Part shown: positions 7,672 to 53,095 of the stretch, one piece after another
How positions within the stretch are numbered: the first letter of the stretch is position 1
Layout of the letters: each line of letters opens with the position of its first letter
Assembly: GCA_041662665.1 (NCBI GenBank)
Contig: JBAZSC010000001.1
Span: 65,511 to 129,510 of the forward strand
DNA: 64,000 bases
Origin: Patescibacteria group bacterium
GTDB lineage: Bacteria > Patescibacteriota > JABMPQ01 > JAQVVF01
Direction of reading: 5' to 3'
The notes under the pieces: generated by a model
Seen by the model: the letters and a program-made list of their open reading frames with translations, nothing else
Database searches by the model: none
Told to the model about the DNA's origin: nothing
Position numbers and translations under genes: made by a program

Positions 7672-8015
7672 AAACAGGTGTTTTTAAGGCATTTCGCATG
7701 CTTTATGCTCAATAATATGGCTTTTCTAAGCCAATATTTCTAAGCGCAAAGCGTGCTTTTTAGGGTAAAATGAGCTTAAATCGGCCCACCTACGCTCCTT
7801 CATTTCACTCAGGAGCTTCGGCGGGCGAGGCAAAAAAAATCACGTACAACATACGTGAATCAGAACATAATATACTAGCAGATGAGCAAGTTGTGTCAAG
7901 GCTATTTCTGAAATAATTGGCAGAAATACGCCTATTTTACCTTAAATAAGGCAAAAAATGGCGATTTTAAGCATAAAAAAACTCCGTTACCGAAGTTAAA
8001 AAAAGAATGTGCAAT

Positions 8016-13005: not shown

Positions 13006-13280
13006 AAATTTTATTTTTAAATGTCTAGTAACTTAATTCTAGCATAAAATTAAATAAAAATCTAGGCGAAATTGCTCAATTGTTCATTTGTTAAATTGTT
13101 AAATCGTTGATTAAAGTTCCTATCCCACACCAAATGCAACTAGAAAAAATAGTTATATCACAGATTAAATGTATTTTAGAAAGAAAATGTTTTTCGTTAC
13201 TTTAACGGCATTTGGTGCGGGATTGTAAATTAAGCATGTTTTTTCTACGCCTGCGGGCTTGAAAAAAATGCTTTCTTTAC

Positions 13281-13310
13281 AAAAAAAACGGGCGCCAGAG
13301 GGCGCCCGTT
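13281..13310 (-). terminator. rho-independent terminator oriented for a minus-strand transcript (cgggcgcc-agag-ggcgcccg; T-run on the minus strand)
   Basis: Perfect 8-bp GC stem; the minus strand reads ...cgggcgccctctggcgcccgtttttttt; a second AT hairpin lies at 13231..13268. Confidence 0.65.
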
Positions 13311-13700
13311 AAAAATATTTAATGGCGCTCTGGCACCCGTGGGAGCTATATCTTACCGCCTTTCTCCTACTTGTGAATGATCACGTAGAATAAGGGCAGG
13401 ATTTAGCGATATAACCCATACAAGGTGCACAAGAAGCCTGATAGTTCTTCAATGTGTCTGTTCTCTCACCGTCCTTCTGGCTTTTGATCTATTTTGGATC
13501 TTGGCCTAAATTTTTGTTTTTGGTTTTTTGACTCCACTTGTTCTGGAGTATAAAGTGCGATTTTGCGGGTGTATCAGCACCCTTAACGGACAGAGAGAGC
13601 AGAATATCGAGTTACTAGTAACTAGTCACTAGTAACTGGCATTCTGCTCGCCCTGTACGGTCGCAGAAAAATAAATTTTTATAAGATATCTCGTTTTCTA
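13311..13700 (-). ncRNA. candidate structured non-coding RNA of unknown class in an ORF-free 1.2 kb region
   Basis: No ORF of 60 aa or more between 13006 and 14211; the region ends at a strong minus-oriented terminator; GC-richer than surrounding intergenic DNA, with multiple local stems (e.g. gagcagaat/attctgctc, gggtg..caccc). Confidence 0.2.
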
Positions 13701-14039
13701 CTTTTTTGTGGCCCTATGCAGATCAAATGGCTAGGCCATTGCAGATAAGCACGGGTAGTTGAATAGGGAAATGTCATAATTCATCTCACGAAATATATTT
13801 TTCCACTCAGGATAGCAAAAGAAAAATGTTCTTTTGGCGAGTCTTAAAATCATTTTAGCTTTTTTCTATGTTTATAAGTATTTCTACTCTGCAACGCGTC
13901 AAAGAGCAGACTCTACATCAGTAACTACAAAAAATCGCAGAAAGCCTAATTTGATTCTGACTAGCTCAAATTGTGAAAAAACGTTTTTGTTTTTGTTTCT
14001 ACATATATTATAGCATAAAATAACGTTTCATTCAAACCT

Positions 14040-14170
14040 TATTATAAATAAAAATGAAAGCTTAACAAAGCCAATCCACAAGTTATCAACAGCGAACACA
14101 AAAGTTATACACAGGCAATGTTTATAACTTTTATAGTTTTAAACAGCATATCTACAACTTATCCACAGGT
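14040..14170. promoter_or_regulatory. cluster of DnaA-box-like 9-mers (TTATCAACA, TTATACACA, TTATCCACA, plus AATCCACA) with a flanking AT-rich tract; candidate oriC or DnaA-regulated region
   Basis: Three TTATNCACA-class boxes in the same orientation within 85 bp, adjacent to ttattataaataaaaatg. Confidence 0.45.
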
Positions 14171-14211
14171 TAGGAACAATTTAAGTAATAAAAAAATCCA
14201 GATAACTGGAT

Positions 14212-37730: not shown

Positions 37731-38327
37731 TTTCGTTGCTTGTTAATTGTTAAATGTTAACTGTTAATTGTCCGCAACTTGACAACTTAATATTGCATTT
37801 ATAAACTGCTAGTCAATTTTATAAGAGTATATGGCGGATGCCTTGGCTAATTAAACCTAAGAAGGACGTTGCAGCCTGCGATAAGCCTCGGGGAGGTGGC
37901 AAGCAACCTTTGATCCGGGGACGTCCGAATGAGGAAACTCATCCTGCATTTATGTAGGATATCTCTTACTTCGGTAAGAGAGGGGTACCCAGTGAACTGA
38001 AACATCTTAGTAACTGGAGGAATATAAAACAATAGTGATTCCCCAAGTAGCGGCGAGCGAACGGGGAACAGTCTAAACCGTATCTTAATTATTAGTAACT
38101 TAACTTTATTGTTGGTTATTAATAATTAATTTATCGGGGTTTCGGAAACAACATTTACGTAATTCTAAGCGGTTAGTTGAAAGCTTCTGGAAAGAACTAC
38201 CATAGTGGGTAATAGTCCCGTAAACGAAAACTGCTTCAGATACGGTTGTTTTCCAAAGTAGCACGAGCTAAGTGAAATCTCGTGTGAATTCGGGAGAACT
38301 ACTCTTCCAAGACTAAATATTTAATTA

Positions 38328-38369
<42 letters not shown>

Positions 38370-38943
38370 TCCCGATGAGGGAGATGAAATAGAACCTGAA
38401 ACCATATACTTACAAGGAGTAGGAGCCCCGCTTCGGCGGGGTGACTGCGTGCTTTTTGCAGAACGAGCCAACGAGTTAATGTATGTTGCAAGGCTAAGTT
38501 ATTATTTAACGAAGCCGTAGGGAAACCAAGTTTTAACGAGCGTTCAGTAACATATATTAGACCCGAAACCAGTTGAGCTACCCATGGGCAGGATGAATTT
38601 GAACGAAAGTTCAAAGGAGGTCCGAACACACAAGCCGTGCAACACTTGGTGATGACCTGTGGGTAGAGGCGAAAAACCTAACGAAGCTGGAAATAGCTGG
38701 TTTTCCTCGAAATAGCTTTAGGGCTAGCCTTATTATTACTTGTTTGGAGGTAGAGCACTGGATGGAATGAGATGGTTTATACCTACTCGTTCCAATCAAA
38801 CTCCGAATGCCAGACAATCACATAATAGGAGTCAGACTGTGGGGGCTAAGCTTCATAGTCAAAAGGGGAACAGCCCAGATTACCATCTAAGGTCCCTAAA
38901 TATATGCTAAGTGGTAAAGGATGTGCGATGACTTAAACAGTTA

Positions 38944-38975
<32 letters not shown>

Positions 38976-47889: not shown

Positions 47890-49265
47890 AAAAAATAATA
47901 TTTTTAATATCATTATTTGTTATATTTTTTCCAGTTGTTATTTTTGCAAAAGAAGCTGGAGATACTTGTACTAAGGCAGACCAATCCGCAGATGGTTGTC
48001 CTTATAATAAGAGTAAGTACAGTGAAGGACTCGAATGCAATATTGCCAGTGATTATCAAGGCAAGCCCATTAATAAATGCGTAAATCTAAAAAAAGAAAG
48101 TATTCCTGTTGGCGGTTATTGTCTAAAAGATGAACAATGTGAAAAAGAATATTCAGCCTATTCTTATATGTGCAACAAGGCAACCTGGACATGTATCCAA
48201 AAAGCGACTCAAAAAGTTGGGCAACCTTGTTCTGAAGATGGAAATTGTTTTAATTCTTATTGCGATAAAACAGGAAATTTTGGCACCTGTAAAAATGTAG
48301 AAAAAGGTACTTGCTTAAGTGATGAAGATTGTTGGTCACAACAATTAGGTACAGGTTACCATAGCACTAAACCATCTTGCGATACAAAAATCAGAAAGTG
48401 TTATTATCCTAGTTCAAAAAATTATACTGAAGCTTGTATTAGTTCAGGTGAATGTTTAAAAGGTTATGAATGTTTTGTTTTACCTGAAAAAACAGAAGGT
48501 CAGTGTCTCTATCCGAAAAATTCAAGAAAAGCAGAAAACAAACAGAATTGTACTATTACAAGCGAATGTGAAACTGGAGCATATTGCCATGATAATTATT
48601 GCGATTGGCAAGCGGCAAATACTAGTACATGTACACAAGATATTCAATGTTCTAATGGATACTGTGCCGATGCTAATGGAGTAGCAGTTACTGGTGGTGC
48701 TTCTGGCACTTGTGTTACTGGCGTAGCTGAAGGAGGCGCCTGCAGTACAGACCCTAGTTCTACTAAAAAATGTTCATCTGGGTTCATTTGTACCGGAGTG
48801 AATGAACAAACAAAAGAAGGAAAATGTGCGAAAAGTACTGTTGAAACTACAGAATCGCTTGATCAAATAGCAGCACAAGAAAAAGCAAAAAGCAATCTCT
48901 CCTCTCAGATAAACTTGTATTGTGATGTAGAAGCCACACCAGGCATGTTTACAAAAGGTGTCTCCAATACTTGTTTTAATTGTGGCAATTGCGGTTCTCG
49001 CGATATTATGGTAATAGTTACAAATGTTATCAATGGTACATTGCAAATTACAGGATTATTTGCTGCTTTTGCAAGCATTGTTTCTGGTTTTATGTACATT
49101 ATTTCGCGTGGTAATGACGAACAAGTTGGTAAAGCTAAAGGAGCATTAACTGCTTCAATTACTGGCTTAATCATAGTTTTTACTGGTTATATCTTAATTA
49201 ATACAGTCATGACAGTTCTTGGTTATAATTGTGGGCAATGGTTTAATCCGACATTCACATGCTAA
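47886..49265 (+). CDS. secreted Cys-rich protein with C-terminal VirB2/TrbC-like two-helix pilin-type module (paralog 1 of 6)
   Basis: Signal peptide; ~10 disulfide-rich modules (C..C...YC); C-terminus LFAAFASIVSGFMYIISRGNDEQVGKAKGALTASITGLIIVFTGYILINTVM aligns with the other five paralogs; start overlaps the SBP stop (ATGA). Confidence 0.6.
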   Translation: MKKIIFLISLFVIFFPVVIFAKEAGDTCTKADQSADGCPYNKSKYSEGLECNIASDYQGKPINKCVNLKKESIPVGGYCLKDEQCEKEYSAYSYMCNKATWTCIQKATQKVGQPCSEDGNCFNSYCDKTGNFGTCKNVEKGTCLSDEDCWSQQLGTGYHSTKPSCDTKIRKCYYPSSKNYTEACISSGECLKGYECFVLPEKTEGQCLYPKNSRKAENKQNCTITSECETGAYCHDNYCDWQAANTSTCTQDIQCSNGYCADANGVAVTGGASGTCVTGVAEGGACSTDPSSTKKCSSGFICTGVNEQTKEGKCAKSTVETTESLDQIAAQEKAKSNLSSQINLYCDVEATPGMFTKGVSNTCFNCGNCGSRDIMVIVTNVINGTLQITGLFAAFASIVSGFMYIISRGNDEQVGKAKGALTASITGLIIVFTGYILINTVMTVLGYNCGQWFNPTFTC

Positions 49266-49395
49266 AATTTTCAATTCTCAATGATCAATTTACAATAAAT
49301 TTTCATTTTACAATTTTCAATTAGGCTAAATGAAAATTGATCATTGGAAATTGATTGAAAATTGAAAATTGGTAATTGAAAATTAAAAAAATAAA
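49266..49395. repeat. palindromic AT-rich spacer repeat (TTTTCAAT/ATTGAAAA family), copy 1
   Basis: aaaattttcaattctcaatgatcaatttacaat...attgaaaattgaaaattggtaattgaaaattaaaaaaataaaATG; sister copy at 50344..50483. Confidence 0.45.
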
Positions 49396-50343
49396 ATGTC
49401 CAAAAATATATTAAAACTCTCAGGTCTATTTTGTGCAATTTTTATTGCTTTTTTTATTCTGTTTTCATATACGAATGTCTTTGCTGTTAGCGATTATAAA
49501 TTTTCTTGTTATTGTTATGATTCAAATCCAACGCCAGGCAATGCCAATCAAAGGCTGTACAGAGATCTTTCATCATCCAATCCTGATCCGACAGTATTTT
49601 GCACAAATTATTGCAAAACAAGAAAAATGGATATAATGGGCTATCAGGAAACAGGAAAAGATGTAGTAATTTTGCAGGATAAATTTAAATCATTATTCCA
49701 ACAACAAGTACAACAACAAACTACTCCAACACCTTCTCCAACTCCACAAACACAAACAGATAATCAAGAAAAATGCTATTGTTCTGATGGAAATTTCTAT
49801 GATATTGAGGGAGGAGATGCAGAATGTACATCTTATTGTATGGATTTAGGATTAGAAAAAGCTAGTCCAGAAGAAGTTCCGGCAGAACAACCTGGTACAA
49901 CTCCAACTGGCACCCAACCAACAGGCACAACACAAGCAACAACAGGTTGCGTTTGCAAAAACAAAGATAACGATAGCAGTATTACTGATTCTACGGCTTG
50001 CACAGATTTTTGTAACAGTAATAATAGAGGCGGAGTTGCATCTTTTACGCCTCCACAAAACAATCAACAAGCAACAAGCGAAACAAGTATAAAAAATCCT
50101 TTAACAGGCATTGAAACGCCAGCTGATCTTATCAAAAAAATAATTAATTATGTTTTAGGTTTTGTCGGTGCAATTGCTGTTTTAATTATTATTTATTCTG
50201 GTTTTGTCTACATGACATCTCGTGGTAATGAAAAGCAAATAGAATCAGCCAAAAATTCTTTGACTTACGCCATTATTGGTTTAGTCGTAATTTTTGCATC
50301 TGTTATTATTGTGAATGCAGTAATATCGGCAATCGGAGGTTAA
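49396..50343 (+). CDS. secreted protein with Cys-containing and Thr/Pro/Gln-rich linkers plus C-terminal pilin-type two-helix module (paralog 2)
   Basis: Signal peptide; low-complexity QQQVQQQTTPTPSPTPQTQ; C-terminus IINYVLGFVGAIAVLIIIYSGFVYMTSRGNEKQIESAKNSLTYAIIGLVVIFASVIIVNAV. Confidence 0.6.
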   Translation: MSKNILKLSGLFCAIFIAFFILFSYTNVFAVSDYKFSCYCYDSNPTPGNANQRLYRDLSSSNPDPTVFCTNYCKTRKMDIMGYQETGKDVVILQDKFKSLFQQQVQQQTTPTPSPTPQTQTDNQEKCYCSDGNFYDIEGGDAECTSYCMDLGLEKASPEEVPAEQPGTTPTGTQPTGTTQATTGCVCKNKDNDSSITDSTACTDFCNSNNRGGVASFTPPQNNQQATSETSIKNPLTGIETPADLIKKIINYVLGFVGAIAVLIIIYSGFVYMTSRGNEKQIESAKNSLTYAIIGLVVIFASVIIVNAVISAIGG

Positions 50344-50483
50344 AATAATAATTTTCAATAACCAATTTACAATTTTCAATAAATTTTCAATGAACAAATT
50401 ATCAAACATCGCCGACGCCATTGAAAATTGTTGTATTGTAAATTTACTGAAAATTGGAAATTGTAAATTTTAATAAAAATAAA
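50344..50483. repeat. palindromic AT-rich spacer repeat (TTTTCAAT/ATTGAAAA family), copy 2
   Basis: aattttcaataaccaatttacaattttcaataaattttcaatg ... attgaaaattgttgtattgtaaatt ... aataaaaataaaATG. Confidence 0.45.
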
Positions 50484-50900
50484 ATGAAAAAAATCTCACT
50501 TATTATTTCGGCCTTGGCCAGTCTAATAACAATTCATTCAGTCTCCGCAGCAACCTGGGGTCTTGAAATATTAGAAGGCACAGGCTTGCCGAATGAAGCA
50601 CCTGGCGCATTTATTGCCAGAATAGTTAGCTATGTTTTAGGATTTATCGGTATTTTATTGATCGTTATGATTATTTATGGTGGATTATTATACATGACTT
50701 CTCGAGGTAATGAAAAACAAACTGAAACCGCCAAGAATGTCTTAACTTATGCAATAATTGGTGTTGTTATAATTTTTGCCGCATATATTATTGCTCGAGT
50801 TGTGATTTCAGCTTTGACTACTGGCGCAACTCAAACTCCATCAACACCATCAGGTCAACAAATTCAGGTCACGCCATCTCAAGTAAGTCCGGAACGATAA
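50484..50900 (+). CDS. short pilin-type protein (signal peptide plus two-helix module; paralog 3)
   Basis: MKKISLIISALASLITIHSVSA; IVSYVLGFIGILLIVMIIYGGLLYMTSRGNEKQTETAKNVLTYAIIGVVIIFAAYIIARVV. Confidence 0.6.
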   Translation: MKKISLIISALASLITIHSVSAATWGLEILEGTGLPNEAPGAFIARIVSYVLGFIGILLIVMIIYGGLLYMTSRGNEKQTETAKNVLTYAIIGVVIIFAAYIIARVVISALTTGATQTPSTPSGQQIQVTPSQVSPER

Positions 50901-50906
50901 CATCTA

Positions 50907-50967
50907 ATAACCAATAATCAAATTCCAATAATCAGTAAATAATCAATTATCAATAATTAAATAACCA
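50907..50967. repeat. left 61-bp inverted repeat flanking the four-helix-bundle gene
   Basis: aataaccaataatcaaattccaataatcagtaaataatcaattatcaataattaaataacc; the reverse complement of 51352..51413 is nearly identical. Confidence 0.7.
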
Positions 50968-50976
50968 CTAAATTCT

Positions 50977-51354
50977 ATGGAGGGAAGTGGAAAACATAAT
51001 TTTGATTTAGAAGAAAGAACATTGCTGTTTTCTAAAAGAGTAATAAAGTTGTGCAATGCGTTGCCGAAAAATTGTATAAATCTTCCGTTAATTAATCAAT
51101 TAATTCGTGCCGCTGCATCAGTAGGTGCAAATTATCGCGAAGCCAACGATGCACTGAGTAAAAAGGATAAGTTATTGAGAATGAGGATTACAAGAAAAGA
51201 AGCAAAGGAAAGTCATTATTTTATTGATTTAATTATTGAGAATAATCCAGATTTTAAAAATAGAACTTTGGATCTCTTGGATGAAGCAGATCAATTAAGA
51301 AAAATATTCTCTGCTATTATTGATGGTTTAGATAAAAATTCAAAGAAATATTGA
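50977..51354 (+). CDS. four-helix-bundle protein (23S rRNA intervening-sequence protein family)
   Basis: NQLIRAAASVGANYREANDALSKKDKLLRMRITRKEAKESHYFIDLI matches the conserved core of the four-helix-bundle / IVS protein family. Confidence 0.75.
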   Translation: MEGSGKHNFDLEERTLLFSKRVIKLCNALPKNCINLPLINQLIRAAASVGANYREANDALSKKDKLLRMRITRKEAKESHYFIDLIIENNPDFKNRTLDLLDEADQLRKIFSAIIDGLDKNSKKY

Positions 51355-51413
51355 TTATTTAATTATTGAGTATTGGTTATTTATTGATTATTGGAACTTG
51401 TTTATTGGTTATT
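51352..51413. repeat. right 61-bp inverted repeat flanking the four-helix-bundle gene
   Basis: tgattatttaattattgagtattggttatttattgattattggaacttgtttattggttatt. Confidence 0.7.
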
Positions 51414-51420
51414 TTATAGC

Positions 51421-52176
51421 ATGTTTAAAAAATTATTTATCATTTTAATATTAATTTTTCTTATTGGAACTTTGATTCCTCAATTTTCTTTTGCTCAATA
51501 TGGTTTAGAAGAGGGCCAAAAAATTCAAGGATTATCTCAAACTGCTCCAGAAATTTTCGTTGGTCAAATTATAAAAACTGTTTTATTGTTAATCGGCGTA
51601 ATTTTAATAGTCTTAATTATTTATGGTGGCTTGACTTATGCAACAGCAATGGGAAATGAGCAAAAAATTGAAACCGGCAAAAAAATTCTTGTTTACGCAG
51701 TTATTGGCACAGTTATCATTGCTCTCGCTTATGTAATCACAACTTTTGTAATGAGCGCTCTGTTTCCAATGCAAACAACGACTTCTACACAGGCAACTAA
51801 AAATCAAACTGAAACTGAAACTCAAGGACAAACCCAAAGCCAAACTCCAGGACAAACTGATGATAATCTTCATGGCCAAAATATTACTGTTAATCCATTA
51901 AATCAAGAAACATGCAAAAAAAATGGTGAGAAATGCCTTTTTTCTCCAAGTGCAAAAGTAGAAGGTCAAACATTAGAAATTCAAGGTACAGCTCCAGTTA
52001 ATATTTGTTGTGCAGGTTCAATATGCGATATCAATACTCAAAGCTGCATCCCAAAATGCGCTGGCAATGGTGAAAGTTTTGTTAAAGAGACATTAGTTAA
52101 ACGAGAATATATTGGCTGTTGTCAAGGTTTAAATAGAAACGAACAAACACAGACTTGCGAAAGGCCGAAGCTCTAA
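51421..52176 (+). CDS. pilin-type two-helix module followed by Thr/Gln-rich linker and Cys-rich C-terminal domain (paralog 4)
   Basis: Signal peptide MFKKLFIILILIFLIGTLIPQFSFA; IIKTVLLLIGVILIVLIIYGGLTYATAMGNEQKIETGKKILVYAVIGTVIIALAYVIT; C-terminal CKKNGEKC..CCAGSIC..CIPKC; the ORF-track start at 51391 lies inside the inverted repeat. Confidence 0.55.
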   Translation: MFKKLFIILILIFLIGTLIPQFSFAQYGLEEGQKIQGLSQTAPEIFVGQIIKTVLLLIGVILIVLIIYGGLTYATAMGNEQKIETGKKILVYAVIGTVIIALAYVITTFVMSALFPMQTTTSTQATKNQTETETQGQTQSQTPGQTDDNLHGQNITVNPLNQETCKKNGEKCLFSPSAKVEGQTLEIQGTAPVNICCAGSICDINTQSCIPKCAGNGESFVKETLVKREYIGCCQGLNRNEQTQTCERPKL

Positions 52177-52192
52177 CGCGGTAGAAAGTAGA

Positions 52193-52654
52193 ATGAAGCA
52201 AGTAGCAAGTCTTTCTACTTTCTGCATTCTACTTTCTACTTTCTACAAAAATATGACCATAAAAAAAATCATAAAAATCAGTCTAATTTGTTTAACGTTA
52301 TTTTTCTGTACAAATATAATCTTGCCCGTTCATGCCGCAGACACTGGAGTTCCAGAAATCAATCAGCAAATGGAACAGTTTGGCGAAAAAACTCCAGTTT
52401 CAACTGTCGAGCTACCTGTTTTTGTCGGCAGAATTATCAGATGGGTATTAGCAATTATTGGTGTAATCTTAATTGCAATAATAATTTATGGTGGTTTGAC
52501 TTATGCAACAGCAGCTGGAAGTGAAGAAAAAACAGGCACCGCCAAAAAGATTTTAGTTTATGCTATAATAGGAGTAATCATTATTGCATTAGCATATGTT
52601 CTATCTAGTTTTATTATTGATGCTTTATTTGAATCCAAGACAAGTATTAGATAG
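52193..52654 (+). CDS. short pilin-type protein (paralog 5)
   Basis: IIRWVLAIIGVILIAIIIYGGLTYATAAGSEEKTGTAKKILVYAIIGVIIIALAYVLSSFI; alternative start at 52253. Confidence 0.55.
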   Translation: MKQVASLSTFCILLSTFYKNMTIKKIIKISLICLTLFFCTNIILPVHAADTGVPEINQQMEQFGEKTPVSTVELPVFVGRIIRWVLAIIGVILIAIIIYGGLTYATAAGSEEKTGTAKKILVYAIIGVIIIALAYVLSSFIIDALFESKTSIR

Positions 52655-52702
52655 AGTAATTTTTCATTTATAATTTTTAATTTGTAATTACTTTGAAAGG
52701 GG

Positions 52703-53095
52703 GTGAGAGAATTGACAAAATTTTTTGCAGTATTAGGACTTTGCGCTATTTTATGTTTATGTGTTACACCAGTAGTAATGGCTCAACGAGGAATTGATGA
52801 TTCAACAGGACCACAGAACGCTTTGGAAAACCTGCGCAATGAAACAGGTTATACAACAACAGATTTAATTTCTTTTGTTGGCAGAATCATTAAATGGGTG
52901 TTAGGAATCGTTGGCGTTATCATGATCGCTTTGTTTGTATATGGCGGTGTTACGTATGCAACATCAGCTGGTTCTGAAGAAAAAATTGAGAACGGCAAGA
53001 AAATTATGGTATACACTATTATTGGTGTTGTCATAATTGCCTTGGCTTACGTTCTAACAGACTTTGTTATTGCCGCTTTATTCCCAACAGTCTAA
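52703..53095 (+). CDS. short pilin-type protein (paralog 6)
   Basis: SD GGGGGTGAGAG; IIKWVLGIVGVIMIALFVYGGVTYATSAGSEEKIENGKKIMVYTIIGVVIIALAYVLTDFV. Confidence 0.55.
   Translation: MRELTKFFAVLGLCAILCLCVTPVVMAQRGIDDSTGPQNALENLRNETGYTTTDLISFVGRIIKWVLGIVGVIMIALFVYGGVTYATSAGSEEKIENGKKIMVYTIIGVVIIALAYVLTDFVIAALFPTV

Follow-up and report, generated by a model that had tools for sequence, protein, structure and literature searches.

How does a gene of the kind carried by the intervening sequences (IVSs) of ribosomal RNA (rRNA) come to lie between two pilin genes, enclosed by a long inverted repeat? The question is raised by a 64,000-nt stretch of a Patescibacteria group bacterium (contig JBAZSC010000001.1, positions 65,511 to 129,510 of the forward strand; hereafter the window), in which a small open reading frame (ORF) for a four-helix-bundle (4HB) protein forms, together with the repeat arms on either side of it, a discrete cassette of 508 bp. 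In our view, this cassette is best read as an IVS-type hairpin unit residing outside rRNA and tolerated since its stem is processed in the transcript, and we would put the probability of this reading at roughly 60%.

The anatomy of the locus is clear-cut. An earlier note, made from the letters of the sequence, had described near-perfect inverted repeats of ~61 bp bounding 50907-51413, and this description was essentially right: the two arms measure 65 nt each, are complementary at 57 of 65 positions (88%), stand 378 nt apart, and bound a unit that extends over 50906-51413 (Table 1). The note’s assignment of the enclosed 125-aa gene to the 4HB/rRNA-IVS family is likewise upheld, as the product scores above the curated thresholds of both PF05635 (50.8 bits, cutoff 33.8) and TIGR02436 (68.9 bits, cutoff 24), and the run of pilin-type genes that this gene was said to interrupt does indeed consist of T4SS_pilin (PF18895) genes, which are its neighbors on both sides across 47886-53095. 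No other 4HB gene is present in the window. The 5′ arm ends 6 nt ahead of the ATG, while the TGA stop codon (51352-51354) lies inside the 3′ arm, which starts 3 nt ahead of it; the limits of the arms thus hug the ends of the ORF, and the loop is almost exactly the 4HB gene. The fit to the neighboring genes is similarly tight, with 5 nt between the upstream pilin stop codon and the 5′ arm and 7 nt between the 3′ arm and the next ATG. The GC content of the cassette is 27%, compared with 33% for the window.

Table 1. Coordinates of the cassette, its flanking genes and ORF-less hairpins of the window.
Feature	Positions	Strand	Basis or remark
Complete cassette of 508 bp (5′ arm, 4HB ORF, 3′ arm)	50906..51413	+	Homology limits, absence in relatives
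5′ arm, A/C-rich, ~9 CAATAAY-type heptamers	50906..50970	+	Inverted-repeat alignment
4HB gene, 125 aa, PF05635 / TIGR02436, S23p/Avd fold	50977..51354	+	Profile matches
3′ arm, G/T-rich complement of 5′ arm	51349..51413	+	Inverted-repeat alignment, fold
Upstream pilin gene, T4SS_pilin	50484..50900	+	Profile match
Downstream pilin gene, T4SS_pilin with Cys-rich C-terminal part	51421..52176	+	Profile match
ORF-less hairpin, tandem ~7-nt arms	49266..49384		74% identical to 50349-50469
ORF-less hairpin in spacer ahead of upstream pilin gene	50349..50469		74% identical to 49266-49384
ORF-less hairpin, NTP-transferase/solute-binding-protein spacer	46446..46579		79% identical to 42206-42337
ORF-less hairpin, 23S-5S rRNA spacer	42206..42337		79% identical to 46446-46579

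The inverted repeat that bounds the gene is confirmed as real and as more than chance would produce. When the genes of the window were scored for inverted repeats in their flanks, the 4HB gene, with a score of 90, ranked first among 54 (median 20). In RNA folding, a long-range stem between the two arms is found in the minimum free energy (MFE) structure and in the centroid alike, with z = -7.4 relative to 100 shuffled sequences, and the two half-spacers, when folded separately, have no fold of their own, with MFE values of 0.0 on the side of the 5′ arm and -7.0 kcal/mol on the other. No second copy of the exact arm sequence occurs within the 64-kb window, a scan of the cassette for promoters and terminators gave no signal above shuffle expectation, an Rfam search of the region returned no family at E<=10, and no defence-system model of PADLOC was matched.

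The most mundane explanation would be that a resident gene simply lies between two generic hairpins or terminators and that nothing here is mobile, and the earlier note had itself allowed that the repeats might be ordinary intergenic palindromes with no link to 4HB genes elsewhere. Such palindromes are certainly present in number: ~25 spacers of the window, including most of those in the pilin array, hold long hairpins with arms built from tandem units of ~7 nt (e.g., AATTTCT, TTAACAG, AAATCCT, TACGAAT and TTCTGCG), and the second-highest flanking score in the window, 85, belongs to the pilin gene at 49396-50343, which is flanked by two complete homologous hairpins. The missing link to 4HB genes is another matter, as the association proved to be strong in other genomes (see below). 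Moreover, generic hairpins have both arms within one spacer, whereas neither cassette arm has a local partner, and the two pair only with each other across the 378 nt to form a single hairpin. Other hairpins of the window do not employ the CAATAAY unit of the cassette arms, which instead matches the arms of 4HB genes in other phyla. We therefore regard the resident-gene explanation as highly improbable, and further evidence against it emerges from the comparisons that follow.

The ORF-less hairpins of the window form multi-copy families (Table 1), and the one at 49266-49384 is itself an insertion relative to two related loci, L082 and L085, where the corresponding spacers measure 11-12 nt (L numbers designate the loci compared). 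The copy in the 23S-5S spacer occupies a site at which one would look for the processing stems of RNase III. The spacer between the NTP-transferase and solute-binding-protein genes contains an ORF-less hairpin in the window, L082 and L084 instead of a 4HB gene; in L085 (1400-1897), a different 4HB gene, encoding 120 aa with 45% identity, occupies a hairpin in this same spacer, and its stem covers the start codon.

Comparison with relatives demonstrates that the cassette is an insertion, as the earlier note had proposed. Three relatives with close homologues of the downstream pilin gene (L082/L083, L084 and L085-L087) are syntenic with the window over 12 kb, comprising an NTP-transferase, a solute-binding protein, six pilin genes and a DUF2079 gene. 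The empty sites that the note had recommended looking for were found in all three: the same pilin junction, which in the window consists of 5 nt, the 508-bp unit and 7 nt, measures 8 nt in L082/L083 (where the empty site reads CTAACAGT), 9 nt in L085-L087 and ~56 nt in L084. In none of them does the junction contain a hairpin, and the 8-9-nt spacers at empty sites are at odds with a gene that had always stood between generic palindromes. Gaps as short as 8-9 nt also mean that the two pilin genes are very probably co-transcribed.

Homologous units were found in two other genomic contexts, with 4HB proteins 74-78% identical to that of the window. In L002 the arm-ORF-arm unit (4HB protein 76% identical) lies between genes for inositol monophosphatase and uracil-DNA glycosylase, a setting shared by L088-L091 and, on the downstream side only, by L093; in L092, which represents the third context overall, it has another ORF on one side and a Jag-like gene on the other. 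L002 and the empty-site locus L082 belong to one metagenome-assembled genome (MAG), STF1_73. Nucleotide similarity to the units of L002, L088, L092 and L093 extends from the outer end of one arm to the outer end of the other, and beyond these limits identity is 29-46% and about one third for most pairs, i.e., background. It follows that arm-ORF-arm is the moving unit, and the empty sites taken together with the other two contexts identify the 508 bp as an insertion. That the arms accompany the ORF from place to place further weakens the case for a resident gene.

Both parts of this moving unit are under purifying selection. Relative to L002, L092 and L093, the 4HB ORF has a ratio of nonsynonymous to synonymous substitution rates (dN/dS) of 0.04-0.11, values that show strong purifying selection on the protein. 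Across the same three comparisons, the left arm is 60-86% identical (78-86% for L002 and L092, and 60% for L093, whose contig is cut in the arm) and the right arm 65-72% identical, compared with 10-35% at four-fold degenerate sites of the ORF (10-25% for L002 and L092). The arms are far more conserved than synonymous sites, which shows them to be under purifying selection as well. Compensated changes in the two arms can be seen between the window and L002 (ATTCC/GGAAC versus TAACC/GGTTA).

The protein itself is a 125-aa helical bundle without a known catalytic motif. It matches PDB entry 2RLD (E=1.5e-10), which is listed with five chains, and its fold, with the protein modelled as a monomer, agrees with the four-helix bundles XCC0516 and BT_0352. 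The same fold and superfamily include Avd of diversity-generating retroelements, a pentameric factor that binds nucleic acid and reverse transcriptase, and this kinship suggests that 4HB proteins may bind nucleic acid too. It might also suggest that the gene is a stray Avd gene from a retroelement acting on the pilin genes, an idea that we consider scarcely credible here. The NCBIfam model DivGenRetAVD gave no match to the protein at E<=0.01 (three other 4HB proteins were matched, all below the cut-off), no reverse-transcriptase family appears among annotated neighbors in the window and syntenic loci, and no direct repeat of the template/variable type was found around the 4HB gene. Furthermore, otherwise identical pilin arrays do without the cassette, and Avd genes are not known to occur within hairpins.

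Is the pairing of a 4HB gene with a surrounding hairpin peculiar to this lineage? The search for inverted-repeat-flanked 4HB genes in other genomes, as suggested in the earlier note, revealed a very strong association. Eighty loci with 4HB homologues (49-76% aa identity) were taken from GTDB species genomes, among them those of Patescibacteria, Omnitrophota, Desulfobacterota-type “Deltaproteobacteria”, Nitrospirota, Planctomycetales, Bacteroidales and Clostridia. For every gene, 200 nt from its upstream side were aligned locally with the reverse-complemented 200 nt from its downstream side, and the best alignment provided the flanking score. A score of at least 30 was reached by 73% of the 80 4HB genes but by 4% of the 218 control ORFs drawn from these loci, and the medians were 38 and 17, respectively (Mann-Whitney p=5e-31). 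Even the top-scoring “controls” include three divergent 4HB genes that the tblastn filter had missed, along with one GxxExxY gene (TIGR04256), and the arm units of these high-scoring controls are GTCAGGA, TTAACAG, TATCTAG and CTTGATTAA. The GxxExxY gene (L040, 4677-5072) lies within a perfect 21-nt inverted repeat of CTTGATTAA units, and it thereby represents a second small-protein family with a gene-in-hairpin layout.

All 80 related loci lie outside rRNA. In 59 of 70 loci the upstream neighbor points the same way as the 4HB gene, which speaks for a reliance on transcription from host genes, and a median of 85 nt separates the two, indicating that the arms fill the spacers. A strong ORF-less hairpin occurs within ~6 kb in just six of 47 loci, so the association is not a by-product of hairpin-rich genomes, and its persistence in genomes of the other kind again speaks against a gene lying by accident between generic palindromes. 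Two of the seven ORF-less hairpins in these 47 loci, a small sample, share the arm type of the nearby cassette. A different kind of crowding is seen in L050 (2930-5869), where three 4HB genes of different subfamilies are found within 3 kb, each with a repeat-arm type of its own.

Plasmids, including those of cultured organisms, provide further settings. In L094-L101, from Nostoc, Anabaena, Planktothrix, Dolichospermum, Pseudanabaena, Chlorohelix and Bernardetia, 4HB genes split defence operons, where they are wedged between DrmD and PglX, a helicase and an N6-methylase, csx2 and cas1, or cas2 and cas1. Inverted arrays of perfect tandem heptamers bracket the gene in most cases, including GTCGGAG x4 and its complement in Nostoc punctiforme, AATTCGT x4.5 in Nostoc flagelliforme and Dolichospermum, AATCCCC and AATCGTA in Planktothrix, and GATGAAG in Chlorohelix (53% GC). 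These operon positions fit an earlier remark on 23S_rRNA_IVP genes inside cas loci (PMC3936711).

The arms of the cassette belong to a recognizable type. Their autocorrelation is 0.46-0.48 at a lag of 7 nt and 0.42-0.43 at a lag of 14 nt, compared with 0.26 for random segments. In this subfamily A and C prevail in the first arm (A 57%, C 21%) and G and T in the second, and the dominant units AATAACC and AGATACA are present in 42-43 of 79 upstream arms. (The polarity of the arms was considered as a clue to orientation and dropped, since an inverted repeat with A/C first reads alike on both strands.) A core of ~30 nt, AATAACCAATAAYCAAATTCCAATAAYCA, is nearly equal in this genome of the candidate phyla radiation (CPR) and in Deltaproteobacteria of 50% GC, and the first 29 nt of the window’s 5′ arm fit this cross-phylum core. 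In 11 of 79 loci (~1 expected), no 3′ arm paired better with the 5′ arm than the one from the locus itself, whose median rank was 9. In many homologues the arm overruns the start codon, such that heptamers encode the first residues of the protein (MTNNQ, ITNNQ or SPIT) and the start codon itself falls inside the stem.

That these arms are not restricted to gene-bearing units became apparent when metagenome contigs were searched for exact occurrences of the 29-nt core. Matches were obtained in 62 contigs, and among ~56 scorable ones, nine have a 4HB gene in the loop, ~34 are ORF-less hairpins with the partner arm 28-130 nt away, two have nested or other content, and ~11 are without a clear partner. 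Seven ORF-less hairpin loci compared with Rfam matched no family. The arms, then, belong to a dispersed and mostly cargo-less family of hairpins, while 4HB genes are almost always found within such hairpins. This ratio of cargo-bearing to cargo-less copies recalls that of autonomous elements to miniature inverted-repeat transposable elements (MITEs), or of ORF-bearing to ORF-less rRNA IVSs.

It is with ORF-bearing IVSs that the likeness is closest. Those in the 23S rRNA genes of Leptospira, Coxiella burnetii, Xanthomonas and Brucella have in common with the cassette a long terminal stem with a PF05635 ORF in its loop, tandem heptamers before a start codon that lacks a good Shine-Dalgarno sequence, the existence of ORF-less versions, and a sporadic distribution suggesting horizontal spread (PMC4990558, PMC11270868). 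In the 23S IVS of Coxiella, terminal inverted repeats pair into a 28-bp stem around an S23p (PF05635) ORF, three to four tandem GACAGAT heptamers stand directly ahead of the ATG together with a poor ribosome-binding site, and RNase III excises the IVS by cutting in mid-stem (PMC4990558). The same paper describes the origin and function of IVSs as still unclear. Within the CPR, 23S_rRNA_IVP / PF05635 ORFs have been reported in insertions of both 16S and 23S genes (PMC11270868).

The earlier note had left the inverted repeat unlinked to the stem of rRNA IVSs, and this needs correcting. Its statement that the unit is not a described transposon type holds insofar as no transposon type corresponds to it, but a described relative does exist in the architecture of the Coxiella IVS (PMC4990558). 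The two differ in the length of the stem, which is 28 bp in Coxiella and 65 bp here, and above all in location, as the cassette is found not in an rRNA helix but between two genes for proteins, with 8.7 kb separating it from the 23S gene (37811-42183). This defining location being absent, “IVS-type” is the appropriate term and not IVS. A full-text literature search, which also took in GxxExxY proteins and small dispersed repeats and had most subscription journals outside its scope, turned up no earlier account of cassettes of this kind beyond rRNA.

How might such a unit work in an operon? On the IVS-type reading, the 508-bp unit, which was inserted whole at a junction of 8-12 nt between two co-transcribed pilin genes and has neither promoter nor terminator of its own, would be transcribed by read-through from the pilin operon. 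Its 5′ arm would stay unfolded until the 3′ arm is made ~440 nt later, and in the meantime it could serve as an unstructured, Shine-Dalgarno-less leader for translation of the 4HB protein. On emergence of the 3′ arm, the 65-bp stem would form and bring the upstream stop codon and the downstream start codon within 12 nt of each other, and in many relatives it would also bury the cassette’s own start codon. RNase III would then cut the stem and remove the cassette RNA without religation; between cistrons, or at the tips of rRNA helices, such excision would presumably be harmless, no rejoining being needed there. Double-stranded RNA of 65 bp with near-perfect pairing is a canonical substrate of RNase III, and the enzyme is encoded in a related MAG that carries the 76%-identical cassette. 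ORF-less hairpins with the same arms would be the cargo-less counterparts of the unit, much like ORF-less rRNA IVSs or MITEs. A parallel is offered by homing-endonuclease genes in rRNA insertions, which are frequent in CPR rRNA (PMC11270868) and are likewise selfish ORFs tolerated through removal at the RNA level, although the cassette has no ribozyme, ligation or nuclease domain, and its removal would have to depend on a double-stranded-RNA nuclease of the host.

Several points weigh against this proposal. Read-through transcription, the timing of translation and cleavage by RNase III are steps that we infer, and for cleavage in particular this contrasts with the rRNA IVSs, in which RNase III excision is established. 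No rnc gene is present in the 64-kb window, a result that is uninformative in that the window covers ~10% of the contig. The Coxiella ORF is apparently not expressed and is decaying (PMC4990558), whereas the cassette ORF has the low dN/dS given above, and the proposed working leaves such strong selection on the protein unexplained. Nor does it cover how the DNA unit inserts. The target-site duplications for which the earlier note had recommended looking are not visible outside the inverted repeats, where the flanks are CATCT and TTATAGC in the one clean filled/empty pair. Finally, mismatches across 57 stems comprise 73 of the G:U type and 72 of the A:C type, without the signature of an RNA strand; with such equal counts, complementarity may be kept at the DNA level, or may simply be young.

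The last two points lead to the principal rival, in which the cassette is a DNA-level transposon of the MITE type and its arms are terminal inverted repeats (TIRs) that serve as recognition sites, either for the 4HB protein or for a transposase whose gene lies elsewhere. In that case the element would carry the 4HB gene as cargo or as an accessory, and hairpins lacking an ORF would be non-autonomous copies. Much of the evidence set out above is what this model would predict, namely inverted repeats exactly at the ends of the homology unit, filled/empty polymorphism with three insertion contexts, ORF-less hairpin families that are multi-copy in the window and themselves indels between relatives, an excess of ORF-less (~34) over 4HB-bearing (nine) copies in the 62 core contigs that resembles the ratio of MITEs to autonomous elements, and the equal numbers of G:U and A:C mismatches expected for complementarity at the DNA level. 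MITEs and REPINs thus share with the cassette its inverted-repeat ends, its presence/absence polymorphism, its multi-copy ORF-less families and the far greater abundance of cargo-less copies.

There is a good deal on the other side, however. The one clean junction shows no target-site duplication, and neither a transposase nor a RAYT partner is seen with the cassette; no transposase adjoins it or occurs in the syntenic loci, with the window amounting to ~10% of a 645-kb contig. The arms, 65-nt arrays of tandem heptamers unlike known TIRs, differ wholly among 4HB subfamilies (AATAACC, AGATACA, AATTCGT, GTCGGAG, GATGAAG and TTAACAG), and no single transposase could recognize all of them. Their sole constant partner is the 125-aa helical bundle, a non-enzymatic-looking cargo. 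We consider a MITE-like transposon unlikely as the full account of the cassette, while noting that it concerns movement and is compatible with processing at the RNA level, as proposed by the IVS-type reading.

Other features of the window deserve brief mention. The 23S gene spans 4373 nt, compared with 2925 nt for the model, and, as CPR bacteria typically do, contains insertions, here two, with LAGLIDADG-type homing-endonuclease ORFs (39860-40321 and 41209-41685, in which the motifs FTDGEGCF and FLDADGAI occur). At ~38087-38130, near model position 280, it also has a small AT-rich hairpin insertion (aauuauuaguaac...guugguuauuaau) that resembles the intergenic hairpin units and may be a miniature ORF-less IVS. 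In the pilin array, a 29-30-nt inverted repeat (GTAGAAAGTAGAATGAAGCAAGTAGCAAG and its complement) at 52181-52246 overlaps the start of the pilin ORF at 52193-52654, whose true start may therefore lie downstream of the hairpin. Three pilin genes possess long Cys-rich extensions, N-terminal in 47886-49265 and 49396-50343 and C-terminal in 51421-52176, which adjoin a conserved TrbC/VirB2-like transmembrane core. Farther away, 1.2 kb at 13006-14211 without an ORF of at least 100 aa has a strong predicted fold (-316 kcal/mol), comprising a GC-rich hairpin and a TAGTAAC-repeat hairpin, and gave only a chance-level match in Rfam. A 344-nt spacer between minus-strand genes at 7672-8015, with an unusually high GC content of 38% and a strong predicted fold (-97 kcal/mol), could be an uncatalogued structured RNA.

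It is conceivable, though on balance doubtful, that the cassette belongs to something much broader, that is, a pan-bacterial and hitherto unrecognized class of mobile hairpins made of 4HB genes and heptamer arms. The rRNA IVSs would be a minority of this class, and ORF-less hairpins, including those in the spacers of this genome, the 29-nt-core hairpins and possibly the short tandemly repeated repetitive (STRR) arrays of cyanobacteria, would be its cargo-less progeny. STRRs were reportedly described by Mazel et al. in 1990 as tandem heptanucleotide repeats in the intergenic DNA of heterocystous cyanobacteria. Such heptamer arrays resemble the 4HB arms of Nostoc and Dolichospermum (GTCGGAG x4 and AATTCGT x4.5), and no link between STRRs and 4HB genes was found in the literature searched. 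A pentameric ring of 4HB subunits might then, as a factor belonging to the element, read one heptamer per subunit, and in this way control processing or drive spread; a model for this is TRAP, which reads triplets, one repeat per subunit.

The rRNA IVSs and their S23p ORF have gone unexplained for some 30 years. If the unit is indeed common between ordinary genes across phyla, IVSs would be one habitat of a much larger family of elements, and this would explain why genes annotated as “four helix bundle protein” so frequently split operons. The repeat-built hairpins that are so dense in CPR genomes would have a candidate source as well. Cassettes outside ribosomes would moreover be tractable by experiment, including in culturable and genetically accessible cyanobacteria, where they sit in CRISPR, BREX (bacteriophage exclusion)/DISARM (defence island system associated with restriction-modification) and restriction-modification operons.

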